The notes under the pieces are model-generated. The model had not been told where the DNA came from. It saw nothing but the letters and a program-made list of their open reading frames with translations, and did not search any database. A stretch of DNA of 63,327 nt, filler included, from Nemertoderma westbladi (Eukaryota > Animalia > Xenacoelomorpha), in NCBI GenBank assembly GCA_032718475.1. It is 2 parts of 2 records of this genome, joined end to end, with 100 filler letters (N's around TTAATTAATTAA, not from the genome) between each part and the next. Parts side by side here need not be neighbours in the genome. Positions count along the whole stretch, not along the records: positions 1 to 31,888 come from JAUCBJ010003113.1; 1 more part is not named here. One strand, written 5' to 3'. A program made the position numbers and the translations under genes. Below, in pieces: positions 183-54,751 of this stretch (the stretch's first letter is position 1; each line of letters starts with the position of its first letter).

Positions 183-734
183 GTTACCTTTCTGTTCCTT
201 GTTAATCAGCCGAACAGTCCCTATAGTACTTAACCACTACCCTGCTAGTAATTAACTGCTCTACTGCTCAGAGTTTAAAAACCAATAACTGAAGTTCAAT
301 GGCGGTGAATTTAGTAATATTAATGATGACCCCTCTGTAAAATTACATGTAAACCTATAAAATTCATAGTTTTCAAGTCAAAGAATGGTTTCCATTGTTT
401 CAATTTTACATTATATATTGATTTCTAATTTTTAATTTGCATCTCCTTTACCTGTTATTGGAATTGGGGGCCCCAAAAAGTCGGGGGCCCCTAGGCTATA
501 GCCTAGCTAGCCTAGGCCTTAGTCCAGCCCTGCTAACAATGTTGGCTAATAGCATCACTCGATGCCCTTCGTTAAGGAGTCAGTATGGTTGGATTTACGG
601 GTGCCGGAGCGCCGTGGCTGCGTAGCGGTGGGGTGGGTGGTATGGTTGGGTGGGTGGTTGGTTGGTCTATTATATTGCTTTAACCAGTAAGAATGTTAGA
701 ATGGTTTCTGCTATATTTATATTTTTTCCTAAAG

Positions 735-1132
735 GAAAAACCTATATTCCTGCGACCTTTGTAAGCGAGAAGGTTGGACCAAGTGGACCTGAAGCCAAAT
801 GCGGATATGATATCAATGTGAGTTATGAGCAGGGCGATGCGGAACTCCGTGATATCATAGACAGAGCGCTCAGCTGCACCCAAACCATAACGCTCTCATC
901 TAAGGGCGTCTCCAGCTATGATTTGTGTTTTGCTGATCGCGATGCCACCAGGCATGTATTCAATTCCGGGAGGACAACAACTTGTCATCAGAGCTCTACC
1001 GAATGTCTCGAGACCATTGTTGTTGATGACAAGAAGTTACTGCCCATCACGCAATTACAGGTTGGGGACACCGGTTCGTCCAGCGAGGTGATCTACAGCG
1101 AGAGTGTCAGTGACATTGTCTGCGACGTCTAG
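735..1132 (+). CDS. Terminal coding exon of a protein with a Caspr/neurexin-IV-type fibrinogen-like module (copy 1)
   Basis: Pyrimidine tract plus AG (ttttttcctaaAG, 733-734). The translation VSYEQ..LRDIIDRALSCTQTI...DKKLLPITQLQVGDTGSSSE...DIVC* resembles the CNTNAP motif Y....I..S..CEQ.....K..LPVTQ....DT......L.C. Upstream exons are not visible. Confidence 0.6.
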
Positions 1133-1242
1133 TTCTATTAATTCTGAGGTGATGGTGATAGAACTGCTTTGTGTTGTCTCTCTCTGTATGCAGATCAGTG
1201 ACAAAAACTTTGTTGGTGAAAAGGCTTTCTTAATTGTGTAGA

Positions 1243-2270
1243 ACTTTGGTGTTTAAATTGGTTCATTAATCTACAGTTTATAACTTTGCTGTTTAAAATG
1301 GTTCATTAATCTACAGTTAATAACTTGGTGTTTAATTAATTACATCTACAGTTTATAACTTTGGTGTTTAATTAAATCTACAGTTTATAACTTTGGTGTT
1401 TAATTAAATCTACAGTTCATAACTTTGGTGTTTAATTAAATCTACAGTTCATAACTTTGGTGTTTAATTAAATCTACAGTTTATAACTTTGGTGTTTAAT
1501 TAAATCTACAGTTCATAACTTTGGTGTTTAATTAAATCTACAGTTCATAACTTTGGTGTTTAATTAAATCTACAGTTCATAACTTTGGTGTTTAATTAAA
1601 TCTACAGTTCATAACTTTGGTGTTTAATTAATTATATCTACAGTTTATAACTTTGCTGTTTAAAAGGGTTCATTAATCTACAGTTTATAACTTTGCTGTT
1701 TAAAATGGTTCATTAATCTACAGTTTATAACTTTGCTGTTTAAAATTGTTCATTAATCTACAGTTAATAACTTGGTGTTTAATTAAATCTACAATTCATA
1801 ACTTTGGTGTTTAATTAAATCTACAATTCATAACTTTGGTGTTTAATTAATTAAATCTACAGTTTATAACTTTGGTGTTTAAAATGGTTCATTAATCTAC
1901 AGTTTATAACTTTGCTGTTTAAAATGGTTCATTAATCTACAGTTTATAACTTTGCTGTTTAAAATGGTTCATTAATCTACAGTTAATAACTTGGTGTTTA
2001 ATTAATTAAATCTACAGTTTATAACTTTGCTGTTTAAAATGGTTCATTAATCTACAGTTTATAACTTTGCTGTTTAAAATGGTTCATTAATCTACAGTTT
2101 ATAACTTGGTGTTTAATTAATTAAATCTACAGTTCATATCTTTGGTGTTTAATTAATTAAATCTACAGTTTATAACTTGGTGTTTAATTAATTAAATCTA
2201 CAGTTTATAACTTTGGTGTTTAATTAAATCTACAGTTCATAACTTTAGTGTTTAAAGTAGTTCTACAGTA
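1243..2270 (+). repeat. AT-rich minisatellite, 32/36/40-bp unit variants with core ATCTACAGTT(T/C)ATAACTTTG
   Basis: Direct tandem repetition; periods of 32 (1377/1409) and 40 (1677/1717) counted. Confidence 0.97.
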
Positions 2271-2799
2271 TAGACTTTAGTGTTTATAGTTTATAATGTA
2301 TACAGTAGTAAGCAGAGACGCAGCTTGTTTATAATTATATATGTTTTTATCAGTGTTTAACCAGTTTGACTTGATGCCCCGATATATAATTATGTAATGA
2401 CGAAGATATTACATGTATCATGTATATGACTATTGCTGTTCATTTTTGGTTATTTGGTTTATTTTTTAGTTTTAGTCTTATTTTTAGTTTTTTCTTTTTG
2501 TTTATTGGTTATTTTTGGTTTGTGGCCAATTTTACAGTATTTTTCGTTTGCGTTTGGTGTCTGTATTTATGTTCCATTCATATTTTCACCTCTTCAATAA
2601 ACTTATATATATTTGAACTGTTTCATACATGGGGCCGAAACTTTTTTGGATTATGATTGGTTGATGAATCAAGAATTAGTGATTGCGACAAGAGTGGGCC
2701 TATAAAAAATTATGTGAGTAACTGTGGGCATATGAATTTATAATAAGTAAATTTATTATTATTAACACTTAAACCATCATATGACATACATAGAATATA

Positions 2800-4590
2800 G
2801 AGTATACATGTAACATAGATGTTAGACATGTAGTATGAGAGAGAGCAGAGAGAAATTAAAACAAGGGAGGAAGCGGAATTAAGGGCACGTGTTTGTGGTC
2901 AAACTTGTCCGGAACAGACACATACCGATGGGGAGGAGATCGAGTAAGAAGACAAGGTGGAAAGGGAGAGGATGTGGGAAGACTAGACCAAGAACGGAGA
3001 AGGCAGCGATGACACGCACATGGGGGTGGCAGAGTGCGAGGGGGCATTAAATGGTAAGCCATTATGCGTACCGAAGAATGACCGGGGGTCATCGGGGGCT
3101 TTAACGCCAGCGCACATATTGAGGGGGAGGCCAGTAGTAAGAGAGTAAAGGGTATGGTATGTAGCTATACCATAGAAGTAGTAGTAGGGTACATAGTACC
3201 GTAGAAGTTAGAAGTTGTGGGCACTGAGGGCGATTATTTATCAAGAGGAGACTGCCATTCACATATCAGGAGGTAGCGACAGCGGCATCGTATGGAGGAG
3301 TCATCAACACTCAGAGATACTTGGATAGATGGTCGCCAGAGACAGGGTCGAGTTCAGGGACTTTCTGGTGGAACACGTGCCGCGGGCGATAAAAATGATC
3401 CTGTGGGACGCTACCAGGGGGAAGCAGGAGGGACACTCGGAGGGACCACCTGCAAAGTGTAACCGGGAGTTGATAACACCAGCGCCCAAAGAACCAACGA
3501 CGGGGCTTAGTAAAACGGTAACGGCAAGAATGAGGAGGACAAGCCGAAGGGAAGGAAGCGGCCCAGACAAGACGATGACAGGGGCAAAGAACTTAGATGG
3601 TTCCCAAAGACGGGAGGAGCGAACTAGACCTCAGGGACAGAGATGTGGGTGTGCCTGGAAGGTACCACATGTAGGATAAAATACGAACTCCTAAGTGCAA
3701 ATAATTAAAGTGCAATTAGTATGGTACGTATGTAGATAATCGAATAATCAATATAAATATATAATCAATCTAAGTATTACAGTCATATATAACCTTTTCC
3801 AATTAGCTACTGGGGCTGGGGACCAATTGACTACGACAGGAGGACGAGACACTAGACGAATCACGCTTCTTGAGTGTGGCGGCACAAAAGGGGAGGGTGA
3901 GGCTCGTCAGGGGTAGGTGGAGTAAGATATCAGTTGAGTACAAGGGAAACGGGGAAGTATGGAGATGAGGTGTTGGCGCGTGAGGAAGTGAAAGAGAATG
4001 AGCAGTGAGAGGGGAAGAATCCCAAGGGACCGAAGTGAGAGTAAGGGACAGCAAGGTCCATGAGGAAGATTAGAGTGAGGTTGAAGAAAATTGTGTGGAG
4101 AGTAAGCACAATTGTCTCAAACAGAGACACCAGATACCTTGGTGCAACATAGCTCGCGATTGCACCAAGGAGGGGTAGTAATAACACACCCAGGGGGGGG
4201 GGGGGTCTGGGAAGCGGACCCCGAGAAAAGAACTCTACCCCACCCCCGATATTAGATTGGGTTCCAGCGGAATTGAAGCGCAATTAAGATTGATGCTATC
4301 TTCGTACTGGGAAGATAGCATGGGGGGGGGGGGGGGGTGTAAGCGGATTCAATTCCCTTACATTATCCACCCGAAAATGGGACCAGTGGCATTTTACCAA
4401 TATAGTTGGCGATACGAGATTACCAATAATAATCTCGCCTCATAACCAACTTGGGGGGGGGGGGGCGATACAGGCCCCAAAGCCACAGAGAGAGGTGAGA
4501 GGTCAAACCACCTCAGAGGGAGAACACAGCTAGTAAAGGCTAGCGGCAGGGGGAAACACTCACAAGGAGTGCCAAAGTGACAATTAGTAT
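2800..4590 (-). mobile_element. Probable decayed retroelement 3' portion with small poly-G/C-containing inserts
   Basis: Pyrimidine-rich strand bias and broken reading frames; no diagnostic motif recognised. Confidence 0.25.
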
Positions 4591-6027
4591 ATAAGCCAAT
4601 AGCGGGCAGGGGAGCACGTGAACAGAGATAGGAAAGCATCCATTGGGTACAGAAGGCCAAGTAGAGTAAGAGGTGAAACCAATATCTATGCGTATCAATC
4701 ATATAGTTATTCTGTGTTACTGATTTACCAGTCAGTTCATTAATCACAGAGTTGCAGACCGGTTATAGTTTTTGACCGTCACTACGTCAACTAACATCAA
4801 TTGTATATCTGCTGTTATTCTGTTATTCTATTATCATTTGGAACATTAACATTGAGGAACACAACCTCTGTTATTTTTCCCCAACAGCTTTCAGCCAAAA
4901 GGACACTAGCCCAGCAGTCAGGTGACGCGTACTAAATCTTACCCAGTCGGGATCTACGATCCCGTCACAGAAATGGAATCACCGTCCAGGAAAACCCCTC
5001 TAATTACATTTTTTGCGATGTTGTGTCCTTTCCTAAATTTCGACTGACAGACGGACAGATTGTTTGATAAACAGACAGTCTGACAGTTAGACAGTCTGGA
5101 ATTCTTCAAACGTGAAAACTAACATTGGTATTGAAATCACCGACCAGGAAAACCACCCTAACCTAAATTTCAGTTCGGTAGACAGACAGACTGACAGTCT
5201 GGAATTCATCAAACGTCAAAACTGACATCGGAAATGCAATCACCACCCCAGAAAACCCCCATATCGAAAATTTTAGTTAAGAAGTATTCTTCCTTATTTT
5301 TTCAATACAATTTGAATTATCCCTCCATTTAACATAAAATGGTGGGAAGGTTTGAAAACTTTAAATGGATTTATCTCAGAATTTTATTTTTCGTTTTTAT
5401 TTTTCACTCATGTACCTGTTTATCTGGAACTACTGGAACTATTTGAACCAAATTGCATGAAATTTTCAGTAGATGTTCTTCTACTAATCCTTTATAGGTG
5501 GTAGCACATTTAGACATGTGGGTTAGAAATTGAAAAAGTTACATCACAAAAAACGGCCAAAATACGTGTTTTTTTCACTTTTTACAATAATAACATTTTT
5601 CACTTTGAAAATTTCTGGTGATCACAATACATTTTTTTATTTATTTTGCAACCAAAAGTCTGAGACAAATGCAAAATTAATTCCCCTCCAAATTTCAAGC
5701 CATTCTGTTGAACCAATTCCTCAGAAGAGGTACATAAGCTTAATAGTCAAATGTATGGACAAACACGTGCCCTTAAGGAATGAGGAAGCGAGGGCGAGAG
5801 AATTGATACCAATTAAACAGAATGAAATAGAGAGAAAGAATATGTGGCAAAGAAAGCACTTATTAGGGAACAGAACGAGTTATTAGAATTAGAAGAGCAA
5901 CAATCAGAGTTAGCACATAGGAATAAAGGTTAACCAACTAGTAGAGAAATAATAACTATGAATACCCTATTAATAGATAAGGTAAGTCAACCTACACAGA
6001 GAGAAATGTGTAAACAAGTCGGCAGCT

Positions 6028-6653
6028 CCAAACCAAAACCCAGTAAGTACATTTATTGACTTTTCGAGATAATCGCGTTTAAAGTTTTTGGACTTTAAAC
6101 AGCTGGCATTTGGTTAAAATTTAATTTAATGAGTTATAATTTTGTGTACCTTTACAAATTGTACATAGTATACTGTATATTAGTGCCAAAACTTTTTTTT
6201 TTAATTTATTCCTTACTTTTCATATAAATCGTCTTACACGGTTTTGGTATGGTAGAAAACAAAATAATTGTGATTTTTCATGCATCAATACCCAGTAACG
6301 TCACGATTCCCATTTCAAAACACAGTAACTAATTTGCCCACACCAAAACCCAGTAAACTAACATTTAACTTTTCCAATCAGTTACCTTTCACATGCCAAA
6401 ACCAAGTAACTGACAAGTCCCTTCGCCAAAACCCAGTAACTCTGACTTCCTTCGCCAACGGTTAGCGAAAACAAAGAGGCAACATTCTAGAATATAATAT
6501 TCTAGAACATTTAATTATTTGTCTACGTCTGTTGCGTTGCCGGAGTTACTGGGTTTTGGTTTGGCATATCTGCATTCGGGAAATCCCACGTCAAAACCCA
6601 GTATCTCAAACTGCTGGAAACCCAGTAACTCTGTTTACTGGGTTTTGACGTGG
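6028..6653. repeat. MITE-like cluster of AAAACCCAGTAA motifs in both orientations
   Basis: Perfect 19-bp IR 6028-6046/6546-6564, 18-bp IR 6586-6603/6636-6653, and palindrome TTCTAGAATAT-A-ATATTCTAGAA at 6485-6507. Confidence 0.7.
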
Positions 6654-6910
6654 TAAATCTGACATTATCTTTGTTCTTGAGGATAATCTTGAGTAGCTCG
6701 AGGTCACACCACATTGCATCCGTACCGTAACTGAACTGAACTGCTGAAATACGAAAAACTGCTCTTAACTTTCGTGATAATTTTAACTGTAACCGTACCG
6801 TAAGTTTGAGTTGGCACCGGTTCTCCGGGTTGCCCTTCAAGCCATTACCCCCTCCTTCGACTAAGAAGATCCCCCAAGATTAAGTCAAGGAATACACACA
6901 ACCTGTAGGA

Positions 6911-9900
6911 ATGATGTTGACAGCGGGAGCGGCAAAACTCGCGGCCAGTAAGAGCCACGGATCGGCAAACTCTCCTCTTCATAGAATGAGGCAGTCGATC
7001 GCCATCCGAACAAACCAGAAAGAATCGCTCGGCCTGCAATCGATACCTAAACACAAACCACTGGCAGGCGCAAAGAAGGGAAACGGGATGAAAGAAAATA
7101 TGTCGCAGAAACGAACGTCGACTGACGGAATAATTCAAGGAGATATCGACAGAAACTCGATAGACCTGTCCACTTCAGGTCATTCTGAATCGCCAACTCA
7201 TCCATCTCCCGTTCCGCACTCATCAGACACAGAAACATCAGAAACGTTCGTCAAACCGGAACCTTCCATCGACATATCGGAACCCGTCCAAACGGAAGCG
7301 AGTTCCCTCAAAAAGAGTAAAATTATCTTCAAAAAGACAATTGGAGCCAATAATGGTAAAGGTGCAATTACGATAAAGCCTGGATCCTTTGATGGGATTA
7401 CTAGAGGGGAATTTAACCCCAGTGCCATAAATTTGGAGAACTCTGTTAACTTCGATTTCAGTACGACGTTCTCAGTAAGCACACCTTCCGAGAAAATCCC
7501 GCACCAGGAACCGGCCGAAATCGGTGAAAATGTCGAAATAATTGACAACCCTATAACAATAAGACACGAAAGGCAAGCCACTAAGGTAGACAGTTGCGAA
7601 TTATATCCTAACGCGATCGAAAAACTGGACCCACAGGAGCTAATAAATAAGATAAAAAATTGTCTACAAGAAATCACCGATAACCGTCCGGCCAACACCA
7701 TCCCCCTACCCGCGGCGCTGAAAACACTCGAAAATAAAGCCTGGTTCAGTGATGATGTTGTGGATGGATTTATGGTACTAATACAACTCCACTTCCCCCA
7801 CACAGCGCCTGTACCAAGCCAACTCGCGGAGCAGCTGAGATCATCGGGCTGTAGCCAACTTTCGGCAATCCAATACGTGGCGACCCGGTATCTCGGTCGC
7901 TATCAATCTATAGCACTGACTCTTCTCTTCTTGCCGGATTGTAATAAAGATCACTTCATCCTTCACATGGCCGACACCAGAGTACGTACCGTGTACGCAA
8001 TAGACTCAAACCGAGCATCGATGCCCATGCGAATACCTTCGCTTTCGCAAATATTCCGAACACAATCGACGAAAATAATCCTTGGAGCAAAAATAAAGCA
8101 ACTGAGAAATGGAAAGTGGGATCAAAGTATACAACGTTAAGTAAGCAGGGGAACAGCTATGATTGCGGGGTGTATGTCTGTCTGGGCTCCCTAACAGTAG
8201 CCCAGGACAAGAATCAGTTACCGCCAATTCATTACGACAGTGCAAAGGCTCGGGGCTGGCTGCAGTCCTGTTTTAAATACTTTAAACTTGCGAATAATGT
8301 GGATGTGGATATCGATTTTGACTATACTCCAGCGACCACCGTCTCTACCGAGGTGAACCATCTCAGCGAACATCGGAATACTGAGGGGAACCCTCCAAAC
8401 CACAAACTAGCGCTGGGAGAACTTGATAATATCATGCATCTACCTAGGAAAGAAGCTCTTAAAATCATATCAGATAAATATTATATGGAGCAAATCTCAA
8501 ATATTCGGAATGACCTGTTCAATTGCGTTACTAAATTAACATCACCTCTCCAACAGGTAACGCTACAGCTGCAATCGCGATCCTCTGCAAGCGCCCTGGC
8601 AACCGACCTTCTAGAACTGCTACGGTGTAGACTAGTGCTGCGAACTGAAACTGAAATTGAACTGGAACTGAAATCGAACTGAAATTGTTTTTGGCAATTT
8701 TAGTGAACTGAAACTAGAACTGAAACATTCATTTTTTTAAAACTGAAACTGAAACTAGAACTGAAACTTGTTATCTTGGAATAGGCCTACTGGAACTGGA
8801 ACTAGAACTGAATTGCCAGAAATTTAAAACTGAAAGTATGATCTATAAATTGGGAATAAGAACAAATTTAAAATTAGCGTTTTTAGTGTTCATAAATACT
8901 ATTTCAATCTTTAATAAATAAATGTAATTTGCTTTATTGTGTTGCAAGACCTACTACTACTGTATAGAAACGAACAGCCAAATCACTGCAAAGTTCATAA
9001 ATTTAGTGGGCCTGTTAAATAGGCCTATCTTAGTTAGAATCTATAAAACAATAGGTCTAGCTCGTCGAAAGTACTTGGCCCTAACTAAATTATGTCCTCT
9101 TTCAGATGATGCAAATAAAAATTGTAATAGCTCCAGTAGTTTTCGAGATTGGGAGTTCCTGGTACCTATTTTAGCACCTTTCGGAATTGAATTACTCAAA
9201 TATATATTTTATTTTAAAGTAATACGTTAATTGTCAACCTAACAATTACCTTTTTGCAGCAAAAAATTCCGGTTGTTTTCATTAAAAATGTAATAAATGG
9301 CAGTCGGATCCATCGGTGGGTACCACACGATTGGCCACGGCAGATTGTTATGTACCAGTATGTAAACAAGACACTTGCAAAATTTTCTGAACATAGAACT
9401 GAAACTACATATTTTTGGGAACTTGAACTTAAACTGGAACTGAAATAAATAGGTTTATTAGAACTGAAACAAGAACTAAAACTGAAATTATTATTTTTTT
9501 GGGAACTGGAACTGAAACTTGAACTGAAATAAACGTGTTTATTAAAACTAAAACTGAAACCGAAACAAGTCAAATTTTCTTTCAGTTCGCAGCACTAGTG
9601 TAGACTAAATGGGTTATTGACAGAACCCTGCCGCAAACGTTTGCGTAAGATTGAATCTACGGATAAAGGTATCACATTGGAAGGCCTCAAGAACGATCTC
9701 ATAACTGCTGTCTCTGCCCTACAGGCTCGCATGTGTATGATCGAGGCTGAGAACTCCAACCTCAAAGAGCGCAGGGGAACTGTGGTAGATGAACTGAGCA
9801 TCGAAAGCCACCATCGAGTCATGTGGGAGTCTAAATTCAACAAACTCAGTTCGACTAAACCAACAATAGGACAGATACTATACGACAATCCCAGCTCAAC

Positions 9901-10936
9901 AATCACCACTATAATAGAGCCCGTCACAGAAAACCAACCAATGGGCGACTTCATTCTAAACATGCCTCTCTCGCCTCATGGCTTGCCCCAAATAGAAGAA
10001 TACGTGATTGTTGACTCAATCAATTCTCCACCAGTTTCACCAGCAGCGCCCCCTGTATTCAAAGACGTGACACAACAATCAAACGCCGATGGCTGGACAA
10101 CTGTAGAACCAAAAAAGAACAAATACACACGAAATTTGGGCGTCGAAACTAAGAGTGACAACCGCGGTCAAAAAAGAGGCACTATAAGAGGGAACGACAT
10201 TCAACCGAGCAAACCGGCCTCAAACAGAGATCCTCCACAAAGACTGCGCTGCGCAGACTCGAGGCGACTTCATTCCCTGTTCATCAGCGGAGTGTCAAGG
10301 AATAATAACGAGAATGATGTTCTAGAATACCTGCACCGTAACAAAATTGAGGTACATCGTTCATCATGCAGGTTAAGCCGTGACTCCATTAACATCTGAC
10401 TAACCGTGGATTTAAACAATTCAGAGACACTAAAACAATCTGACTTCTGGCCTGCTGGAATTCGATGTCGCGACTGGGAATATCATCCCAGATATGTGGA
10501 ACAAAGAAAACGTCATGAAGATAATCGAGATCACCATAACAACCACGTACAACACCGACGGCATAAAGACCCCCATATTCAACGTGATAATAGCGGACAG
10601 CTTTCGAGTCAACACGACCGCAACAGCCAACAAGATACCAACGGACAACCCTGGGTGCATCGCAACCTGACCGAACAACTAGACTCCCGCGAACAACGTT
10701 CGAGGAATGGAGACCAGTATGGGGGGCAACGAGATCAGTCTAGGAAACGAGACTATGATGGACAATCCTCGTGGCTGTGCAACCCCAACGAGCAACACTC
10801 ATGGAAACCGGATCGCTACGGACAGCCCTCAGGCCATCGTGACCACGATGAACAACAATCGTGGAAACGAGAACGCAACGGACAGCCATCATCATATACT
10901 AATCCTAGAGAGTTCCCAAGCCGGTATCGTCTTTAA
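6911..10936 (+). pseudogene. LINE ORF1, disrupted: Ulp1/C48-like cysteine protease + coiled coil + RRM-like domain + R/D/Q-rich tail
   Basis: Protease motifs LENKAWFSDDVVD, LFLP..NKDHFIL, YAIDS and KQGNSYDCGVYVC. Frameshift near 8005-8010. Removing the MITE 8633-9597 plus one TSD joins ...LELLRCRL to NGLLTEPCRK in frame. In-frame TGA at 10397. C-terminal LFISGV...FWPAGIRCRDW is typical of LINE ORF1. Confidence 0.8.
8633..9597. mobile_element. hAT-type MITE (965 bp)
   Basis: Perfect 18-bp TIRs TAGTGCTGCGAACTGAAA, 8-bp TSD GTGTAGAC (8625-8632, 9598-9605), and subterminal (G)AACTG(A/G)A repeats. Confidence 0.95.
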
Positions 10937-13413
10937 CACGTCAAACAACGAGGAGAGAAGTGAAATCGTAGCTGTAAGATGTGGTACACTAAATACAAAC
11001 GGATTTTCAAGCAATACAAACTATATAAATAAACTTCTTGATGAATGTGACTTCCTTGGAATACAGGAACACTGGTTGGACGATCTGGAATGTCAGGCCA
11101 GCCTCTTTCCGCTTGACAATAAATTTGACTGCGTCTACGCTGTCAGTTCCTTGATGGAAAATCCGGATAGAAAACGCGGTGCGGGCGGCGTCGCTTTATT
11201 CTTTAAGAAGGATTTAGTGAGGAATTGGTCTCAGGTAAACGGCGGCGACGACATAGTTGGCATTATTGCTGACCTACACCATGCCGAGCGGCCGGTCTTG
11301 GTGTTATCATGTTATGCTCCGGATCAATCAAAGGACACCGCCTTGTATGACAGTTTCCTGGGTCGCCTACGCTCCCTCATAACTCAATATTCAGGGTGTC
11401 TTCCGATAGTCCTAATGGACTGCAATGCCGATGTCGGTAACTTACAAGGTGCGAGGGGACACCTATCAAACGAAAAACCAAATTCTAGAGGCATTCATCT
11501 GAACTCATTCCTAAACACCATCGAGTTATGCGCGGCAGACACTCACACTCAGTTCAGTGGGCCAGTGGTAACTTTCCGGGGACAGGGTAGAGATACGTCC
11601 TCGTATATCGACCATATACTGGCGTCAACCACCGGGCTCGATCTCATCAACACTGGAATAGTATATGACGACGATCCAGCCAATAACTTCTCCGACCACG
11701 TTCCAGTAACTGCAAATTTTCAGCTCACTTCAAATAACGGCGATGCACAAACGACGTCAATTGAAGTTCAATTGGGCGAAGGCAACGGATGAGGATAAAG
11801 ATAAATATAAGGAGGTAGTTGACTTCGCTGTCGAAAAGTCTGCCCTAGAGATCAATGACCTTCGAGCCAAAAATGGTAGCATCGAGGACATAAACAACTG
11901 CATGGACAAACTACAATGTGCAGTGGTTGCGGCCACAACAACATACATCCCGACGCTGAAACAAAGATGCAGTACGAAAAATATACGAATCCGTTCCAAA
12001 CTGCTACAATCAAGTGTGAAGATTACACGGCAGCTGTATAAACTGTGGGAGGAGGCGGGCCATGAGCCCACCGACCAACTGGGTTCGGAGTTCAAAGAGT
12101 CGAAACGGCGCACTCAGAGGATTAAAAATTATTTATCAAAGAACTTTGTTCGCAATTCCACAAACAAATGGGCCAGAAACGTCAGTTCAAACCCTAGAAA
12201 TTTCTGGTCCAACGTTAATCGCGCGAAGACTTCTAGTGCCCCGCCAACGATGGAGTCTCCCCTACGAGACCACAACGCCACTAAGTTCAGTGGAGGCGGC
12301 GGAGTGAGTGAAACTCTGAACGCCGAACTGCGGGAAGCCTGTTCGGAAACGGTTCTCCCTCAAATCTCGTCGTTAGCTGTGAGACGAGCCATGGTCTCAC
12401 TATCGACTGGGAAATCCCCTGACTTCGCCTCATTAACTGTGGAACATTTACTGCACATGAACCCAGAACCGATCTGTGAATATCTCGCCTCCTTAATCAA
12501 TGCCTGTTTTAATCTAAAGCAAGTACCTGAACTGTTTGGAAATTCGGTCGTATCAAGTCTTTACAAAGGAAAGCAAAGAGACATATACAACACTGGATCC
12601 TATAGACCTATAGCTTCCATAAGTATCTGGGCGAAGGTTTTCGAACGTATCATTCTCACCGACTTCCCCATCAATATCAAACTCCACGATAACCAAACTG
12701 CATATCGGGACAGGATCGGCTGTGATATTGCCATAGCGACAATTCTAGAATGTATGGAGAACAATCTATCCAGCAAATCGACACTGTTCTATGTCAGCTG
12801 GACATCGAGTCGGCGTTCGACACGGTAGACTACGACGCACTCGGTCTCAAGATGTTGGAATTCGTCAACCCCCATGTGGTCGCGACCGTGCTGAACTATT
12901 ACACCATCAGTATGATATTCCTTAAGTTTGCCGGTTTAGTAGACAGCGACGGAATCCAAGTCTCCCGCGGAGTTAAACAGGGGTCGCTCCTATCGCCTCT
13001 CCTGTTCAATCTATATACCCGGAGTATTATTGATGACCTTCAGGACACAAACATCGGATACTCAATTAACTCGATCTGGTTGGGAGCAATCTCATATGCT
13101 GACGATTTTCTGTTGATGGCTAACAGCGCCAAAGACATTCAGCAGCTGTACACTACGTTTAGCTCAAGCGCCAAAAACATAAAGCTGTTGGTGGAAAAGA
13201 GTAAAATCAACTGGTCGGTTTTTTCGAACCAATGATCTCTACATCTCCCAACCTTCCTCACATTAGAAGGCCAACTGATCCCCACCAAGAACTCGTGGAC
13301 CTTTCTGGGCTACAACTTAGCCCAGGCTATGACCAACCCTCTGGGCGCGTCGGTGCAGAAAATCGCTGCTCTGGCCCACATGTTCCAGTCGAAGGGTTGG
13401 TCCATGAGGTGGC
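10707..13413 (+). pseudogene. LINE ORF2: AP endonuclease + reverse transcriptase, frameshifted and 3'-truncated
   Basis: APE motifs TLNTNG, IQEHWL, GGVAL, DCNA, SYIDHIL, SDHVPV. RT motifs YRPI, LDIESAFDTV, GVKQGSLLSP, SYADD. Frameshifts near 11750, 12790 and 13230; ends at the TGTT junction at 13414. Confidence 0.93.
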
Positions 13414-16400
13414 TGTTCGCGCTTTCAGACCTTTAGCAGTTTAACCTGCCAAATTTGGATGTCTTCTAGATAATAAATCGACTTTAGCCTATGACGAGTA
13501 TTTGATACACTACATTAGCCGAAGCCAGTCTATGCGCGACCATTCACCCGCTGGATATACCCGGGAGACTGGATTCGGAAGCTTAACCTTATTGCGGTGT
13601 AGGCCTACTGTATTATTCAACTGATCGTAATATATAATCTCTGACAAATATTATTCACTTTCGGGAAATATTAACAGTTCCTTTAGGACGTGGCGCTCTA
13701 AATATGTAAACAGAGTTATGACTTAAACTAGACACAACGGGATGGCTATGGATTCACGTATATAGCGCATTCTTTAGGAGATGCTTTGTTATCAGTCACA
13801 ATCATGTACACTACCGCACAATACTGCACACCGATCTGCCGACCTTCACTAATTTTAGTCACATATAAAGAGAACAACAACCGATACATGTAGTGCCTAT
13901 GAAATAGCATTAGATTCACTTCAAAACCACTTTAATGTAAGTCGCAATCGTTATATGTAACCGGTCTCTCTTACCTTCAGTATATCAAGAAGATTGAGGG
14001 TTTTGTAATTATTTATCGATATTCCAAATATAATAATATTACATCAACTGATATAATGAATGACCGACAGTAAATAGCAGTAAAAATGCGGTGTTTGTAG
14101 TTGACAATATGATTAGGTGAGTAGGTAAGATAACAGATATACGTTCTATAATTAAGCCTACTAATGTTGGTCTAAAGCCTGAAAACACAGAGATTCCAAA
14201 GCCGGTCTTCTAGGCTCGGGAAAACTAACACAACTGAACCCTCTGGGATGTTGTAGGTATCTTTCAACACAAAGAGAAACAGCTCTCATTGGCCGAGTTC
14301 CAGATTCTGTAGGTTCCACGAATGTCTAAATGCCGAACTATTCGGGTTTTTGCAGCCCATATTCAACACAAGGCGAAATCGCTCTGATTGGTGGATCATT
14401 GTTCTGATTGGTTGATCGAACAGAACAAAGAGCCTATAGGCGTACAGCAAATCGGTTGGTAGATTGCGTCATTTGAGTTAGGTAGTTTAGAGTATTTGAG
14501 CGCATTGTGGGAAAACTGGCTTTTTATGGCCGCTAAAGCACACATGCAGACACAGCGGATAAATCGCTAGTTATGTCCTCTAAAAACACCTTACACAGTA
14601 CATTGCGGAGAAAAGGGCCAGTTATATCCCGCAAAAGCTTTTACACCACTCCCAGAAAATGGGATTTAATTCTATAAAATATAAGAAATCACAGTTTCTA
14701 AAATATAAAAATACTCTAAACAGCTAGTCTTTCTTGCGCGGACGGCGTTTACGCAGTTTTTTGAGGCTAGCAAGAGTCCTTTTCTCTTTGGGGCGAGCCA
14801 CTTTACTAGGAGGGCTATAACTCCTGGGTGAAGGGTGCAATACAATTGCATCAGAAGGTTTAGGGTTACGGTCGATGTCTCGTCCATTTCGATATGCTTC
14901 TCCTCGAGCTGATTTTCCTCCGCTTATCGTTGGATGCGTTCGTCCAAAACTCTTGCAGAGAATAGGGTCGTCCAAGTTCGATATCTTCTTAGAGATTCTG
15001 AATTTTCTGATCGAACTGAGATAAAATTAATTCGTTTACCGCTTGGACTTGCTGCTGCAATTTACGTTTCTCTAAACAATTGTAGGTTCATTTTCCGATC
15101 TTTTGACGAATAGTGTCCAACGCGTTTCGTACAACTCTTTCCTCCGCCTCGGTGACAGGTTATATCGGGTTAAACAGGGACGATGATACGGTTGAATGGC
15201 GATATTAGCTGTCCACGTCCCAATCCGACTAAGTGAGATGGGTGAATATTTAGGGAGCCCACAACCGGAGTGCCACCGACTAACTGTTCGGGTAACACTA
15301 GATCTTGGAACAGTGAGTACAGTTCGGGAGGATCCGTGATACTATTAGGATCAAGAGTCTGAGGTCCAACTAGGGAATGAGGAGGTCTGACCGAGTATTC
15401 CAGAACTCTGATCATAGGTTTATTTAAGGATCGTTTGAATCGAGCGAGCGTAGGTGATACATCGAACAAGTTTCGCTCGAAACTCCCGTAAATATAGCGA
15501 GTAAAACTGTGTTTAAAGCAACGTCTCCGCGGATGTTTATGTCTTTCCGTTTGTTGGTTGGGTCTTGGGCATTCATCGCAATAATACCAAAGACGCACGT
15601 ATTGTAGGGGAAACGCGGGTGATATTTATTCGGTGTTACAACGTTTCTCTCAAGAATTCTAAATATACGTTAGAGTGACTGCGTTTATCCGGTTCTTTAA
15701 CGTCTTCTCTTTCGAGTCGATTTCGAATAGAATTTTCGCATTCGATTTTCAGTTTATCGTTCCGACTCCGCTGGGTAGGATACTCAAAACAGTACCATTT
15801 CCCTTTCGGTGTCGACATCGTCCGTATCGTGTAAATCGATAGGATGACCAGTAGTTAAGAAGTCCATATACATACCATTACGATGCGTATAGTGAGCGGT
15901 GAGTTTTCTATAGTCCAATTCACGCGTAAGTTGCTCCTGGGACATTGGCGGTTCGATATAACGACCATCGTCCTCCGAAGTAGTTGGACCAGCGTCGCCG
16001 CGTATCAAGCTATCAACAAACGCTTGTAAAGGTAGAGTATATCGCTCCCTGATACCAAGATCATCTTCTATCAACTCAGTCATATCTGCTATATGAGTTT
16101 ATCAATATTATAATGAGTTTATATTTAGGCTAGCGGGCGTCGCTGCCTACCCCTCTCGGCCCCCGGACAGCGCAAGATCCTCAGCGCTGGTGTGCCGTCG
16201 CCTCTGTGTTTTCGCCAACGTAGTAGCTACACAACGACAACCGGCACAAGTCACTCCACCGTCCGTCCCAAAGGCTTAGATTTACTTCAGGTTCTTACTG
16301 GAGAGTTAGGGCTACTTTCACAATTGCGACTCGCTACTGTAAACACACTTTAGTAGTAACATTCACCTATAAACGCACAAATTCCACACAACTGTCACAA

Positions 16401-17697
16401 ATCGCACACATTCGGGCCATTTGTCTGTTAGTCAGTGCCTTCCAGAATGCCACGTTATTATTGGGTATCCTTGGATAATAGCAGTGTGCTATTTTATTCC
16501 TTATGCTATTTAATGGGGCAAGCCTTTATTGTTCTTTTAACTCACTTCTAATTCTAGCGTGGTTGTTGCCATGGTGACATTATGGAAAGCTAGCGGTAGA
16601 ATTAGGGTAATTCTCATGCATACAGATCTGGGATGCTATTTAATAGTAATTCTTTAATTGTCAATATTTCTCTTTATACATGATTTTATGAATTTTATCG
16701 GCTATTGACTATATATTGGAGATTCTCGCACACTAATATACTTAATAGGGTGAATCTCCGCTCCCATGATCTATTAATTTATGGAATTTTGGGAATGTTA
16801 TAAATTGTATAAAAATGACAATTTATCAAATTCATTAAAAAGATGAATTTAAATTTATTCCCGTAAATTTTATTATTTAATATTAAATAGACACAATTTT
16901 ATTCCAGAACATGTCTGGGGACTGGGATCCTTGATTCTAGGAAATTGATCTTTTTAAGAATATCGGTAAGTGCTACGATATCTTAATAGACTAGAATTTT
17001 AAAGGATCAAAAATTTGACAGATTTTGTAAATATTAATAATTAATATTTAGGATGGGCACCAGTTTATTCCAGAACATGTCTGGGGACGTTAACCACTGA
17101 TTCTAGAATTTTGTCTTTCAAGTATATCGGTGGGTGCCGCGATATCTTAATCGACTAGAATTGCAGATGGTCAAAGGGTTTAACAGATTTATTTTGCGTT
17201 GTACGCTACTGTTAAAGTGACATCACGCTACTATATGTATTATTTAATATACGGTATGAGAGCAATATCGCACGAAGCAATGTCAGTGAGAAGAGGCAAG
17301 TCGTTTCCAAGGTCTACCCAGAGCTTGGTTTAGCCGAGACACGAGGATCTGAACTTTGCATTCCTAATACTCTACTTACCAATAATACTTGAATATAGTA
17401 GGAGCTTTATTGTACTTTAATAAGTACGGATATTTCATCTTACTGTAGTTACGTATTTGTAATGTAATACGGACAGTAAGGAAAGAGAAAAAGAATTATT
17501 TCTCGCCGTCGCACTAAATATATAATATATAAGTAATTAAGTAATAAACGCGAATATATATTGCACTAATCTACTAAATAATCGCTAAAATAACATTCTA
17601 CTAAATAAAATTAAAGAAAACGATTATAATAAAATTACATAATAATACATACATAAATATAAAATAATAAAAACAAATATAAAATAATATAGTCACA
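13414..17697 (-). mobile_element. Putative 3' LTR (~4.3 kb) of a BEL/Pao element
   Basis: On the minus strand it starts TGTGAC directly after purine-rich GGAGTGGGTG following the pol stop, and ends GCGAACA. The first ~1.2 kb has a diverged homologue beginning at the same TGTTCGCG boundary at 42063. Confidence 0.6.
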
Positions 17698-18610
17698 CAC
17701 CCACTCCAGACGCTGTTATGTTGGGGAGTCCCTAGATGTTTGTTGGATTAGGGAGGTGGTCGTGGGAAGAGTATCTTGCCTTCCATAGTTTCCGGACAGT
17801 TCTCGGTCTCGTTCCAGTAAACATAAACGACCAACTGGGCGATTGAGCTGCTGTGTCTCGAAGACAATTCCAGGTTTCCTCTTCGTCCTGGAATAGTGAC
17901 GATAGAAACATCGCTTCAAATACACGACGGCCTTACAAAGCCGATTCCAGGATCTATAGTGGTCCATCGCTCCCGGCAGGAGAGGTGAGAGTCCCGGCGA
18001 GACGTCTGGTGTTCCAGATCTCCAGTCTCTCTCTCTGATCTCCACAACAGATCGGTTCGCGGTGGGGGAGTTTAGATCCACAGTGTCGTCCCTGGCAATG
18101 TGTAGTACAGACAGATCTATCATGGGTTTAAATAACCTTGATTTACTCGTCCGGGTTTTAGGTTTGACTTTCTCCGCTCCCTTGGCTTGCCCAATCTCAA
18201 CCGTGGTAAGATGGGGAGGCCATTCATCTTCTTTACTTAGGAAGTCGGGTCCACCTAACCAGTCTGGAGTATCTGTCAGTTCTTGAGGAGTTGCTCCTCT
18301 GGAAGCGATGACGGCTAAATTAATCGTCTCGGGGCAATGTCTCCATTGATCTACATTGGAGTTAATATCGTCATTATCTGACGAGTATGGTGTTCCCTCA
18401 GTTGGGTCGTCTACCTCACTGCTCTCCGCTTCCCATTCACTTACTTGGTATACCCATTCTTTTGGTAACCTTTCTATGAGAGTTCTACGGGAAGGGCCAG
18501 TAAAGTACCAACCTACTCTAGTTCTTCCCGCATAGGCTTGTAGTGGTTGCGGTTGAGCAGGTCGTTTCTCCGATTTTGGCCGATGAGTATTTGCACTCCA
18601 GGGTAGTCTG
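17698..18610 (-). mobile_element. Internally deleted BEL/Pao pol fragments
   Basis: Pieces match the element at 31989-38114 (DYPGVQILI.QN; VGWYFTGPSRRTL; WRHCP.TIN.A.IASRG), followed by SWNRL...YLKR and the C-terminal RPVGRLCLLE motif. RT, RNase H and integrase core are absent. Confidence 0.85.
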
Positions 18611-21600
18611 CCAAATTTATGGCACTGGGGTTAAATTCCTCTCTAGTAATCCCATCAAAGGATCCAGGCTTTATCGTAATTGCACCTTTTCCATTATTGG
18701 CTCCAATTGTCTTTTTGAAGATAATTTTACTCTTTTTGAGGGAACTCGCTTCCGTTTGGACGGGTTCCGATATGTCGATGGAAGGTTCCGGTTTGACGAA
18801 CGTTTCTGATGTTTCTGTGTCTGACGAGTGCAGAACGGGAGATGGATGAGTTGGCGATTCAGAATGACCTGAAGTGGACAGGTCTATCAAGTTTCTGTCG
18901 ATATCTCCTTGAATTATTCCGTCAGTCGACGTTCGTTTCTGCGACATATTTTCTTTCATCCCATTTCCCTTCTTTGCGCCTGCCAGTGGTTTGTGTTTAG
19001 GTATCGATTGCAGGCCGAGCGATTCTTTCCGGTTTGTTCGGATGGCGATCGACTGCCTCATTCTATGAAGAGGAGAGTTTGCCGATCCGTGGCTCTTACC
19101 GGCCGCGAGTTTTGCCGCTCCCGCTGTCAACATCATTCCTACAGGTTGTGTGTATTCCTTGACTTAATCTTGGGGGATCTTCTTAGTCGAAGGAGGGGGT
19201 AATGGCTTGAAGGGCAACCCGGAGAACCGGTGCCAACTCAAACTTACGGTACGGTTACAGTTAAAATTATCACGAAAGTTAAGAGCAGTTTTTCGTATTT
19301 CAGCAGTTCAGTTCAGCTACGGTACGGATGCAATGTGCTGTGACCTCTAGCTACTCAAGATTATCCTCAAGAACAAAGATAATGTCAGATTTACCACGTC
19401 AAAACCCAGTAAACAGAGTTACTGGGTTTCCAGCAGTTTGAGATACTGGGTTTTGACGTGGGATTTCCCGAATGCAGATATGCCAAACCAAAACCCAGTA
19501 ACTCCGGCAACGCAACAGACGTAGACAAATAATTAAATGTTCTAGAATATTATATTCTAGAATGTTGCCTCTTTGTTTTCGCTAACCGTTGGTGAAGGAA
19601 GTCAGAGTTACTGGGTTTTGGCGAAGGGACTTGTCAGTTACTTGGTTTTGGCATGTGAAAGGTAACTGATTGGAAAAGTTAAATGCTAGTTTACTGGGTT
19701 TTGGTGTGGGCAAATTAGTTACTGTGTTTTGAAATGGGAATCGTGACGTTACTGGGTATTGATGCATGAAAAATCACAATTATTTTGTTTTCTACCATAC
19801 CAAAACCGTGTAAGTCGATTTATATGAATAGTAAGGAATAAATAAATAAAAAAAGTTTTGGCACTAATATACAGTATACTAAGTACAATTTGTAAAGGTA
19901 CACAAAATTATAACTCATTAAATTAAATTTTAACCAAATGCCAGCTGTTTAAAGTCCAAAAACTTTAAACGCGATTATCTCGAAAAGTCAAAAAATGTAC
20001 TTACTGGGTTTTGGTTTGGAGCTGCCGACTTGTTTACACATTTCTCTCTGTGTAGGTTGACTTACCTTATCTATTAATAGGGTATTCATAGTTATTATTT
20101 CTCTACTAGTTGGTTAACATTTATTCCTATGTGCTAACTCTGATTGTTGCTCTTCTAATTCTAATAACTCGTTCTGTTCCCTAATAAGTGCTTTCTTTGC
20201 CACATATTCTTTCTCTCTATTTCATTCTGTTTAATTGGTATCAATTCTCTCGCCCTCGCTTCCTCATTCCTTAAGGGCACGTGTTTGTCCATACATTTGA
20301 CTATTAAGCTTATGTACCTCTTCTGAGGAATTGGTTCAACAGAATGGCTTGAATTTTGGAGGGGAATTAATTTTGCATGTGTCTCAGACTTTTGGTTTGC
20401 AGAATAAATAAAAAAATGTATTGTGATCACCAGAAATTTTCAAAGTGAAAAATGTTATTATTGTAAAAAGTGAAAAAAACTCGTATTTTGGCCGTTTTTT
20501 GTGATGTAACTTTTTCAATTTCTAACCCACATGTCTAAATGTGCTACCACCTATAAAGGATTAGTAGAAGAACATCTACTGAAAATTTCATGCAATTTGG
20601 TTCAAATAGTTCCAGTAGTTCCAGATAAACAGGTACATGAGTGAAAAATAAAAACGAAAAATAAAATTCTGAGATAAATCCATTTAAAGTTTTCAAACCT
20701 TCCCACCATTTTATGTTAAATGGAGGGATAATTCAAATTGTATTGAAAAAATAAGGAAGAATACTTCTTAACTAAAATTTTCGATATGGGGGTTTTCTGG
20801 GGTGGTGATTGCATTTCCGATGTCAGTTTTGACGTTTGATGAATTCCAGACTGTCAGTCTGTCTGTCTACCGAACTGAAATTTAGGTTAGGGTGGTTTTC
20901 CTGGTCGGTGATTTCAATACCAATGTTAGTTTTCACGTTTGAAGAATTCCAGACTGTCTAACTGTCAGACTGTCTGTTTATCAAACAATCTGTCCGTCTG
21001 TCAGTCGAAATTTAGGAAAGGACACAACATCGCAAAAAATGTAGTTAGAGGGGTTTTCCTGGACGGCGATTCCATTTCTGTGACTGGGTAAGATTTAGTA
21101 CGCGTCACCTGACTGCTGGTCTGCTGGGCTAGTGTCCTTTTGGCTGAAAGCTGTTGGGGAAAAATAACAGAGGTTGTGTTCCTCAATGTTAATGTTCCAA
21201 ATGATAATAGCACAGAATTAGTTACAGTATGTGATTGAAATCGCAATACAGAATAACAGCAGATATACAATTGATGTTAGTTGACGTAGTGACGGTCAAA
21301 AACTATAACCGATCTGCAACTCTGTGACTGTGATTAATGAACTGACTGGTAAATCAGTAACACAGAATAACTATATGATTGATACGCATAGATATTGGTT
21401 TCACCTCTTACTCTACTTGGCCTTCTGTACCCAATGGATGCTTTCCTATCTCTGTTCACGTGCTCCCCTGCCCGCTATTGGCTTATATAGCTTATTGCAG
21501 GTCCCTCAAACCAGCCGTCTGCCATAGACCATAGACATAGTCTGCAGTACTGCAGTATGCAACTATAGCTCAGTAGTAGTTAGATAGGCCTACCCTAATC

Positions 21601-21693
21601 AACTGACCCATACATCAGACTTTAGACCTTAAGACTTTAAACCAGTTACTATACCGGTACTATACGCTTCCCGTCCCGTACGCGTACCCTATT

Positions 21694-22275
21694 ATGTCTG
21701 TCGCGTGGAAAGACGTCGGACCAACTCTGATGGAAACGTTAGAACAAATAAAAAAAGATACTGCCTTGATCCCGATAATCGTGCAACAATTAGTTGAAAC
21801 ACGCACCGAAAACCACCAGCTTAAACTTTAAAACGACTCCCTTATGCAATACATCCGACGCTACAATGTACTTATTCATGCGGTTCCGGAATCAATAACT
21901 GTAGAAGAAGAAAGAGGCAAAGTTCAGAAAGTTGTGGAACAACTAGGTATAACATTCGAAAGCGTAGATGTATTCCACCGCTTAGGACCGAAACCGAGTA
22001 GGCCTATATCAAACGATTCGGATGGGACTGCAGTAGGCCAGTCATCTCAATTAAAGGCCAAACTACGTCCTATTCTGATCAAATTCTTAGGTCATCGCCA
22101 CCGCCTGTCCGCTTTAATGAACCAACGCAAAATTGAGCCCGCTTACGTGTCTGACCATCTAACACCATGACGTGCCACTATCTTACGCCAACTAAGAGAG
22201 TATAAAAATAAAAATCCAGGATCGATACACGCAGCCTATTCCCGTAATGGCGAAGTCTATATGAAGAAGACATAA
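21694..22275 (+). pseudogene. LINE ORF1 remnant (L1-ORF1-like coiled coil/RRM/CTD)
   Basis: QYIRRYNVLIHAVPE, HRLG, RPILIKF, VSDHLTP and SRNGEVY, with in-frame stops. Confidence 0.8.
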
Positions 22276-23284
22276 TCTTCTCGACCGCTGCACGTAGTCG
22301 ACGAGAATACTGCCAATTCCATAGTTGGCGTCGCACCCAAACCAAGTATAGAGCAGTCTATCCTCGATCTTCTCCACCAACCAGTTGATCCGAATACCTA
22401 CCATCAAGTATCAGAAAGAAGAACCAGTCGTCGGAATGCGAACGTACGTTCCGGCTCGCAATCGATGGCGGATACTTCGAATAGTAACGACGCTGTCAAC
22501 AACCGATATAACTACTTATCATCCTAGTATGGGGATTGGCTCGCCATACCCATGTTATCTGTATGAACCCACCCAGTTACCGTCAAACCGGGTCACCCTG
22601 GTCAATGGTTCTGACCCGTTTTCTTAAAACCTGTAACGAGGAATTATTGGTGATGGTCATTCTGTTTATTAGCCCATTTCTTTCTTGAGATCGACCACTT
22701 AAAGCTTAGCTTAATTTTTCAAAATATTGATACATATAACAACTCTAGACGATTTTTTTTTTCTTTTTGCAAGTATGTCGTTGAGATATGTTTTCTTTTT
22801 ATCTTATATTTCAGACTTTTTTCAATGCCCGTCACTAGTTGGTATGTAATTGGCTGTCTCATTATATAGTCTCATAAACTTAAAATGGATATTCAATTCT
22901 ATCTACTTCAACTGGATCCGCAGTTTTACAAAAAAAAATTTTCGTTTTCTTTTTTGAAAGTATATATAATAATTCATTGAGATACGTTATTTTGTTTATC
23001 TTATCCCTCAGTTTCTTTTTTCAAAATATGACATATATATTATTGGTATAGAAACTTAAAACTAGATACTCAAATCCATTCTAATTTAGATCCACAGTTT
23101 CCTTTCCTTTCGCAAGTATATAATTTATTCATTGAGTTATGTTTTTTGCTTATCCTATCCTTCATATGGAATCACCCATATATTTTCCAAAATATGATAT
23201 ATATTACTGGTATATGTAATTGGCACTTTCCAAAATATGATATATTATTTGTTCTTTAGGTAAAAGAATATTACTTATTCATTA

Positions 23285-26200: not shown

Positions 26201-26637
26201 AGTTTTATGGGGAAACAGCTACGATATTTATACCAACAAAATTAAAACTAAAGTTAACAAAATAATTAGAGCAATAACTTTTAACCACTTCCGAGAACAT
26301 GCGGCCCCGATATACAAATCTCTAAATATTTTGCCATTTAATAAACTTTTTGAATTGGAGACCGCAAAGTTCATGTTCGACATCAAAAATAGAACCAAAA
26401 CTGAAGCTCTAGTAAATATTTTTAAAGCCACATCCTCAATACACCACTACAATACCCGTTCTGCGTCAGCACAAAATTTTTGTTATTCCCCGAGTTCGGT
26501 TACAAATTTCCCAACAATCACTAAAATTTACTGGACCTAAAATTTGGAACGATCTACCACTCGAAATTAAAACCTCAAAAAATAAAGTTATGTTCACTTC
26601 TCGTTTAAAAAAACTATATTTGGAATCACTTCTATAA
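23285..26637 (+). pseudogene. LINE ORF2: PHD finger + APE + RT, several frameshifts
   Basis: C-x2-C...C-x2-C-x4-H-x2-C...C-x2-C; HLNCRSL, TETFL, GDINID, SLIDHI, TDH; NYRPISIL, VDLKKAFD, GTPQGAILSP, FADD. Confidence 0.93.
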
Positions 26638-31075: not shown

Positions 31076-31183
31076 TACACAATTAAGAAAGCCTTTTCAC
31101 CAACAAAGTTTTTGTCACTGATCTGCATACAGAGAGAGACAACACAAAGCAGTTCTATCACCATCACCTCAGAATTAATAGAA

Positions 31184-31581
31184 CTAGACGTCGCAGACAA
31201 TGTCACTGACACTCTCGCTGTAGATCACCTCGCTGGACGAACCGGTGTCCCCAACCTGTAATTGCGTGATGGGCAGTAACTTCTTGTCATCAACAACAAT
31301 GGTCTCGAGACATTCGGTAGAGCTCTGATGACAAGTTGTCGTCCTCCCGGAATTGAATACATGCCTGGTGGCATCGCGATCAGCAAAACACAAATCATAG
31401 CTGGAGACGCCCTTAGATGAGAGCGTTATGGTTTGGGAGCAGCTGAGCGCTCTGTCTATGATATCACGGACTTCCGCATCGCCCTGCTCATAACTCACAT
31501 TGATATCATATCCGCATTTGGCTTCAGGTCCACTTGGTCCAACCTTCTCGCTTACAAAGGTCGCAGGAATATAGGTTTTTC
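31184..31581 (-). CDS. Caspr-like terminal exon, copy 2
   Basis: Mirror of 735-1132; two amino-acid differences (AELR/AEVR, SCTQ/SCSQ), frame intact. Confidence 0.6.
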
Positions 31582-31888
31582 CTTTAGGAAAAAATATAAA
31601 TATAGCAGAAACCATTCTAACATTCTTACTGGTTAAAGCAATATAATAGACCAACCAACCACCCACCCAACCATACCACCCACCCCACCGCTACGCAGCC
31701 ACGGCGCTCCGGCACCCGTAAATCCAACCATACTGACTCCTTAACGAAGGGCATCGAGTGATGCTATTAGCCAACATTGTTAGCAGGGCTGGACTAAGGC
31801 CTAGGCTAGCTAGGCTATAGCCTAGGGGCCCCCGACTTTTTGGGGCCCCCAATTCCAATAACAGGTAAAGGAGATGCAAATTAAAAAT

Positions 31889-31988
31889 NNNNNNNNNNNN
31901 NNNNNNNNNNNNNNNNNNNNNNNNNNNNNNNNTTAATTAATTAANNNNNNNNNNNNNNNNNNNNNNNNNNNNNNNNNNNNNNNNNNNN
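31889..31988. other. Assembly gap containing an artificial TTAATTAATTAA linker
   Basis: 100-base N run with an embedded six-frame stop linker. Confidence 0.95.
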
Positions 31989-38114: not shown

Positions 38115-38249
38115 GTTTAGCTATACAGTTGAATGTCTACTACTATAGTTTCAGTTAAAGCAAGTCTAGTAATTCAGTATGACCGCAAGCCTAGCGATTT
38201 ATTACCGATACCGTTACTCGGTGTAACGTGATATATATACAATATATTA

Positions 38250-48160: not shown

Positions 48161-48164
48161 CAGA

Positions 48165-53640: not shown

Positions 53641-53727
53641 CCGGCGCCCGAAGTTGACTCATTTTGGCTTTCCTGGGCACTCTGGGATTGTTCACATGGG
53701 CCCTACAAATACAACTACCGGTAGAAT

Positions 53728-54694: not shown

Positions 54695-54751
<57 letters not shown>

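Follow-up and report, generated by a model that had tools for sequence, protein, structure and literature searches.

We analysed a 63,327-nucleotide stretch of DNA from Nemertoderma westbladi (assembly GCA_032718475.1), referred to here as the window, in which parts of two records are joined end to end; positions 1 to 31,888 come from JAUCBJ010003113.1. On the plus strand between 6911 and 13413, seven long reading frames make up two broken open reading frames (ORFs). These very probably represent a decayed long interspersed nuclear element (LINE) with an apurinic endonuclease-like (APE) domain and a reverse transcriptase (RT), whose ORF1 encodes a predicted Ulp1/SENP-like cysteine protease (C48) in frame before a predicted coiled coil and a domain resembling the RNA recognition motif (RRM). 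The same order, with the protease frame ahead of an overlapping APE-RT ORF2, had been proposed in a preliminary description of the locus and is supported here. The features of the element are as follows.

6727..6910, plus strand: likely 5' leader of the LINE; contigs of other DNA runs carry different upstream sequence joined at 6727, and the start is not fixed
6911..10936, plus strand: ORF1, from ATG 6911 to TAA 10936, 1017 codons read across three lesions
6911..7720, plus strand: N-terminal region of ORF1, rich in S, T and P and likely disordered (residues 1-245: 27% S+T+P, 23% hydrophobic)
7721..8260, plus strand: Ulp1/SENP (C48)-like protease domain, from PDB phmmer, ESM Atlas and Pfam PF02902
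8034..8035, plus strand: ORF1 frameshift between the catalytic Asp and Gln, where other-copy contigs have one more base
8485..9790, plus strand: predicted coiled coil (about 8485-8590 and 9689-9790; crude heptad scan), divided by the transposon on the next line
8633..9597, unstranded: non-autonomous DNA transposon (miniature inverted-repeat transposable element, MITE), 965 bp, with an 18-bp perfect terminal inverted repeat and an 8-bp target duplication
10262..10474, plus strand: RRM-like ORF1 domain with 16 relatives, ending in an FWP-G--CR-W motif, with a TGA inside
10397-10399, plus strand: in-frame stop TGA of ORF1, interrupting the RRM-like domain
10475..10936, plus strand: low-complexity ORF1 tail rich in R, D, Q, N and H (29% Q+N+H), overlapping the ORF2 start
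10683..13413, plus strand: ORF2 in four pieces, first ATG 10707, sharing 10683-10936 with ORF1
10983..11699, plus strand: APE endonuclease domain of ORF2 (PF03372, E 4.6e-10)
12592..13214, plus strand: RT core of ORF2 (PF00078, E 0.09 and 2.3e-20 on two pieces), with a frameshift near 12790
13414..14086, unstranded: high-copy repeat cutting the LINE 3' part, 75% like 42063-42746
18611..19320, minus strand: second copy of the LINE 5' end (to 7436), with 11 differences in 837 bases, stopping before the protease at a presumably Bel/Pao-like fragment

When the MITE and one copy of its target duplication (973 bases) are left out and an X is placed at the frameshift and at the TGA, ORF1 reads through 1017 codons with no stops, which bears out the single frame of about 1000 residues expected once one insertion, one frameshift and one stop are removed. 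Shuffled ORF1 DNA (2000 shuffles) contains 51 stops on average and 33 at the minimum. The N-terminal region, 6911..7720, has no Pfam match.

The protease domain is split by the frameshift; its N and C halves were searched separately, and Pfam was run on pieces. Yeast Ulp1 (1euv_A) is the best match for each half among 177,635 PDB sequences searched with phmmer. The N half aligns with residues 39-132 of this chain (E 0.043), including the Trp, His and Asp, and the C half with residues 172-194 (E 0.011), including the Gln and Cys. Chance motifs were ruled out as a source of the resemblance by these independent matches, which are collinear and do not overlap. All four catalytic residues named in the preliminary description are present (His 7952, Asp 8003, Gln 8146 and Cys 8164), with a Trp at 7742. 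The His and Asp are 17 apart, with no gap relative to 1euv_A, and the Gln and Cys are 6 apart (Gln-x5-Cys). In the ESM Atlas the N half matches C48 clusters at 0.94, and 23 of its 30 matches are C48. A host SENP gene lying beside the LINE was also considered and ruled out, as the protease, coil and RRM all lie in a single frame. Self-comparison revealed no inverted or direct repeat pair bracketing the protease, and none of the element's seven ORF pieces matched a transposase family in Pfam.

Downstream of the protease, the two parts of the predicted coil have hydrophobic residues at 7 of 8 and 6 of 8 heptad a/d positions. A HMMER search of 1.84 billion representative sequences with the part of ORF1 behind the MITE returned 17 matches. 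The top match, P0020 (1055 residues), was rejected as a relative; it is a C1q coiled-coil protein matched by chance through its coil. The other 16, of 133-507 residues, have the FWP-G--CR-W motif in common, and a profile built from them matches ORF1 on both sides of the TGA (E 9e-12 and 2e-12) as well as the RRM of hnRNP A2/B1 (E 0.0015). The fold was predicted on one of these relatives, P0023, and not on the window ORF1; it is beta-alpha-beta-beta-alpha-beta with a pLDDT of about 97, and the structures that match it best are RRMs (lowest E 0.002). Judged from sequence, ORF1 has an ordinary predicted coil-RRM back half, to which the front half with the protease is a putative addition.

We compared other copies of the element through contigs of public DNA runs from one organism, considering 17 of 23 loose ends for junctions, 32 of many contig pieces and 40 of 103 difference rows. 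Runs X1 and X3 come from one sample and X2 from another study, and the best-covering run may itself be the source of the window sequence. X4 and X5 gave no useful cover of the element, and X1, X2 and X3 each cover every bin from ORF1 to the RT. In contigs of three of the four runs compared (X1, X2 and X3) the MITE is skipped exactly, from 8624 to 9598 (973 bases). Its target duplication occupies 8625-8632 and 9598-9605, the frames on its two sides become continuous when it is removed, and its region has repeat-level contig depth; from the length of the duplication we take it to be hAT-like. Contigs of three of four runs (6690-8636) have an extra base at 8034, with a depth of 22.8 of 77.5 in X1, 64.1 of 64.1 in X2 and 163.4 of 163.4 in X3, which puts the frameshift at this position and not near 8120-8140. 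One X3 contig of 2439 bases runs from the protease to the RRM (7125-8624 joined to 9598-10544, with 113 other letters). The catalytic His, Asp, Gln and Cys are unchanged among the 40 of 103 differences to other copies that were considered.

The possibility had been raised that other copies start downstream of the protease. Instead, differing 5' sequence joins the element at 6727 (X2 and X3), 6926 (X3) and 7128 (X2), and all of these junctions, among the loose ends considered, lie upstream of it. They may have arisen by insertion of 5'-truncated copies, or other sequence may later have inserted into a single locus. Additional loose ends of X1 and X3 at 8592 and 8628 can be read by eye in the ORF1 frame with a two-codon gap, covering both sides of the MITE site. 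The residue is the same at 15 of 19 codons, ten of them through a different codon. These ends seem to belong to a diverged sister copy, which by eye also seems to share the 5' leader. The retention of residues through other codons argues for past selection on the part of the ORF1 frame that directly follows the protease. In X1, X2 and X3 the element has a contig depth of 59, 77 and 163, compared with 38, 51 and 149 at the flank at 5931; contig depth is no copy number. The depth of the element is near that of its flank and far below that of the neighboring repeats, which hints at a low copy number.

Several observations weigh against the assignment of the protease or against its place in a mobile element. 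The Pfam match to PF02902 reaches 17.9 bits (E 0.0029) on the C half, compared with a curated cut-off of 20.7, and the N half alone gives no match to this family; the absence of any C48 match, foreseen as one outcome, did not occur, although the match is weak in Pfam. The residue after the catalytic His is a Phe, whereas all 22 rows of S5 Fig of Kojima and Jurka (PMC4640811) have a Trp. Of the aromatic clamp for the Gly-Gly tail, the first Trp is present (7742) and the second position is this Phe. C48 is found in none of the 17 ORF1 matches, several of which are short and may be fragments. Two larger comparisons, each of them weak evidence, were also negative: a word-based search of 7991 candidates of 889-2535 residues with the RRM alignment yielded no relative with both C48 and this RRM, and one of 289 long candidates with the N half of the protease found nothing. 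Because related ORF1 proteins are without C48, the protease was likely captured in this lineage.

The remaining observations of this kind concern the copies. None of the contigs compared (32 of many pieces) spans the distance from the protease to the RT, a linkage seen in the window only; the LINE family of the preliminary description is accordingly narrowed to a few copies in one species. No fully intact copy is present among the contigs compared, and other copies have 1-base deletions of their own at 7001, 7309 and 8124, in addition to a 3-base deletion at 8426. Such breakage at different places would be expected if the copies decayed from an open ancestor. The contig of the sister copy extends only 104 bases upstream of 8592 and stops short of the protease. 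Substitutions between the window and close copies look neutral (13 of 40 synonymous with 11.7 expected, P 0.37, for 40 of 103 rows), which gives no evidence of selection on the protease itself. Finally, kilobases of flanking sequence are shared by the second copy within the window, which marks it as a duplicate and not as an independent insertion. In X1, X2 and X3, contigs pass 7436, the limit of that copy, unbroken. The copy belongs to a long inverted duplication of 428-7436 and 18611-31888, about 88-99% alike by segment, which ends at an assembly gap (N's at 31889-31932 and 31945-31988) and may be real or a doubled haplotype.

The APE and RT domains previously assigned to ORF2 are present, to which we add that the frame is broken and is cut at 13414. 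Its lesions comprise two frameshifts (near 11720-11790 and 12790) and a stop at 13233-13235 behind the RT. An X1 contig tracks the LINE to 13414 and then continues for about 600 bases unlike the window, which indicates that in this copy the repeat starting at 13414 stands in place of the LINE 3' end or breaks into it. The copy of the LINE in the window is dead.

Identity of the RT to the sequences found lies at 26-38%, with the highest scores from R2 proteins. However, in a quick 29-row tree it falls outside the set of 16 R2-like rows and sits with two APE-type rows on a long branch of uncertain position, and an R2 origin of the RT is not supported. This tree left out P0011, P0014 and 70 of 80 metagenome loci, and contained no NeSL row. 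The APE and RT motifs (QEHW in the APE; GVKQG..LSP and SYADD) resemble those of RTEX/Proto2 (RTE group), to which the element may be related. The 80 metagenome loci match the RT at 26-34%, mostly with group II intron motifs, and none of them matches the ORF1 profile. The APE pattern had no match in viral contigs, nor did the APE piece match any PDB entry at E 1.

How might a protease have served the element? ORF1 proteins are described as multimerizing through the coil and binding RNA through the RRM (PMC3905857). In Drosophila, SUMOylation of Panoramix couples Piwi to heterochromatin and is needed for Piwi silencing (10.1101/2021.07.27.453956). The protease may have acted as a SUMO isopeptidase borne by the ribonucleoprotein of the element, a proposal for and against which we see about equal grounds. 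A domain captured in this lineage would then have been carried by an ORF1 protein that multimerizes by its coil and coats the element RNA by its RRM and basic tail. Each particle would display many protease domains, and these could strip SUMO from silencing or repair factors at the nascent transcript or integration site, or from the particle's own proteins. The anti-silencing role put forward in the preliminary description is plausible. More tentatively, and with some doubt, we envisage an APE-LINE lineage with at least two subfamilies in this species, an active SUMO isopeptidase in its ORF1 protein and a particle that erases SUMO-dependent silencing or repair signals. If true, this would constitute an ORF1 class with an enzyme and an RRM in one chain, and a direct counter-defence against heterochromatin guided by Piwi-interacting RNAs.

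Other roles for the protease have to be considered alongside that of a SUMO isopeptidase. It is unlikely that the enzyme acts on another ubiquitin-like tag (NEDD8 or ubiquitin) or that it modulates DNA repair where the element integrates, as opposed to transcriptional silencing. SENP8, which is a NEDD8 protease, does occur among the C48-type matches of one half with nearly the same weak score, and the Phe after the His departs from SENP/Ulp1; however, both halves score better with Ulp1 and SENP1/2 than with SENP8, all scores being weak. Bao et al. proposed a DNA-repair role for transposon Ulp1 and OTU domains (PMC2836005). A protease within a long multi-domain protein might also be a maturation enzyme that cuts the element's own proteins, either releasing itself from the ORF1 protein or trimming the ORF2 protein. 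C48 proteases cut behind Gly-Gly, and there is a Gly-Gly near the first ATG of the overlapping ORF2 frame. However, the sole Gly-Gly of ORF1 is at residue 947 in the tail, with none between the protease and the coil or RRM, and the two ORFs are separate frames and hence yield no polyprotein. Self-processing, which had been suggested earlier, is thus disfavoured, and we regard a maturation role as improbable.

The protease might, alternatively, be no more than a passenger. In that case a piece of a Ginger, Mutator or NeSL-like element, or of a host gene, would have fused once to this LINE, spread only by duplication of the locus and brought the element no benefit. The few copies and neutral-looking substitutions would fit such an origin, as would the second copy in the window, a segmental duplicate, and the failure to find a cross-species relative. 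Yet more than 570 codons upstream of the MITE are open and in frame with the coil and RRM, the four catalytic residues are kept, and no repeats bracket the protease. The diverged sister copy also keeps the frame right behind the protease and seems, by eye, to share the 5' leader. A mere passenger is on these grounds quite unlikely.

The window contains several other elements. Immediately downstream of the LINE, 13414-15500 consists of very high-copy repeats (summed contig depth 1e5-1e6 compared with about 55 over the LINE in X1) without an Rfam match; a search of 5000-21500 gave no Rfam match at all. Upstream of the LINE, 6030-6690 has repeat-level depth and a short motif in many copies in both orientations, and resembles another small DNA transposon. 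A CR1-like LINE at 23264-26540 (APE E 5.9e-11, RT E 4.7e-28) is present in one arm of the inverted duplication only, and its APE frame opens, by eye, with a Cys-rich PHD-like stretch. Pieces of another CR1-like LINE (RT, C-terminal) lie at 54087-56313 on the minus strand. A long terminal repeat (LTR) element, which we assume to be Bel/Pao-like, is represented on the minus strand by a 2059-codon frame cut at the gap (31941-38120) and by an 80% alike fragment with an internal deletion (17716-18610) that abuts the second copy of the LINE 5' end. From 46930 to 54000, a strongly skewed satellite of 8-bp units flanks a 72-bp tandem array on both sides as two opposed arms (GC skew +0.96 and -0.95); its long P/H/S/F/I-rich frames are likely not genes. 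Open frames of 168 and 260 codons occur at 626-1132, 31184-31690 and 46146-46928, with no Pfam match in the two of three scanned.

Ulp1 domains have been described in other transposons. The preliminary description called them much rarer in non-LTR elements than in DNA transposons without naming the known precedent, NeSL of nematodes and Utopia-1_TSP, which are single-ORF elements with a restriction-like endonuclease (RLE; PMC4640811). These share with the window element a Ulp1-like cysteine protease upstream of the RT in a non-LTR element, and, by eye, similar P-x-C-x(2-3)-H and Q-x3-C-G-V-x-V-C-L patterns. However, NeSL and Utopia have a single protein that combines zinc fingers and an RT with a restriction-like endonuclease at its C-terminus, whereas the element here has two overlapping ORFs; ORF2 has its APE at the N-terminus, and the protease belongs to a separate ORF1 together with the coil and RRM. 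A C48 domain is likewise borne by the DNA transposons Ginger1 and Mutator, and a role in transposition has been proposed for it (PMC2836005), but in these the Ulp1 is fused to or beside a DDE transposase in an element with terminal inverted repeats, and here it is on the RNA-binding protein of a retroelement. The catalytic domain of yeast Ulp1 (1euv_A) has the Trp, His, Asp, Gln and Cys in the same order and spacing, although similarity is weak and a Phe replaces the Trp after the His.

The back half of ORF1 corresponds to the Type II ORF1 of APE LINEs (Metcalfe and Casane, PMC4120745), in which a coil and a single RRM precede an APE-RT ORF2; the window ORF1 has in addition about 570 N-terminal residues with the protease. 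The words 'protease' and 'peptidase' do not appear in the main text of that survey of 448 Jockey-superfamily elements or in that of a gastropod survey (PMC11203168), and PMC5718144, PMC5408684 and PMC9099904 added nothing on this question. The esterase ORF1 proteins of ZfL2-1, CR1 and RTEX are alike in that an enzyme has been captured beside a coiled coil. However, that enzyme is an SGNH esterase and, according to PMC3905857, no Repbase esterase ORF1 has an RRM, whereas the window ORF1 combines an enzyme with an RRM. Our literature search turned up no C48 domain reported for the ORF1 of an APE-type LINE; precedent may exist in Repbase, Dfam, subscription journals or bioRxiv supplements, which lay outside this search.

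The weight of the finding is limited by its source, a dead, low-copy element in one species. It would nevertheless widen the ORF1 repertoire, which includes RRM, PHD, zinc knuckle and esterase, and add another independent capture of Ulp1 in non-LTR elements, this one outside the RLE clade. The role of Ulp1 in transposons is an open question in the literature consulted, and a location in the ORF1 protein points to where and when the domain would act; as a small soluble enzyme it is open to assay. Both transposon-borne Ulp1 and Ulp1 in non-LTR elements are already known, and what appears to be new in comparison is a C48 domain in the coil-RRM ORF1 of an APE LINE.

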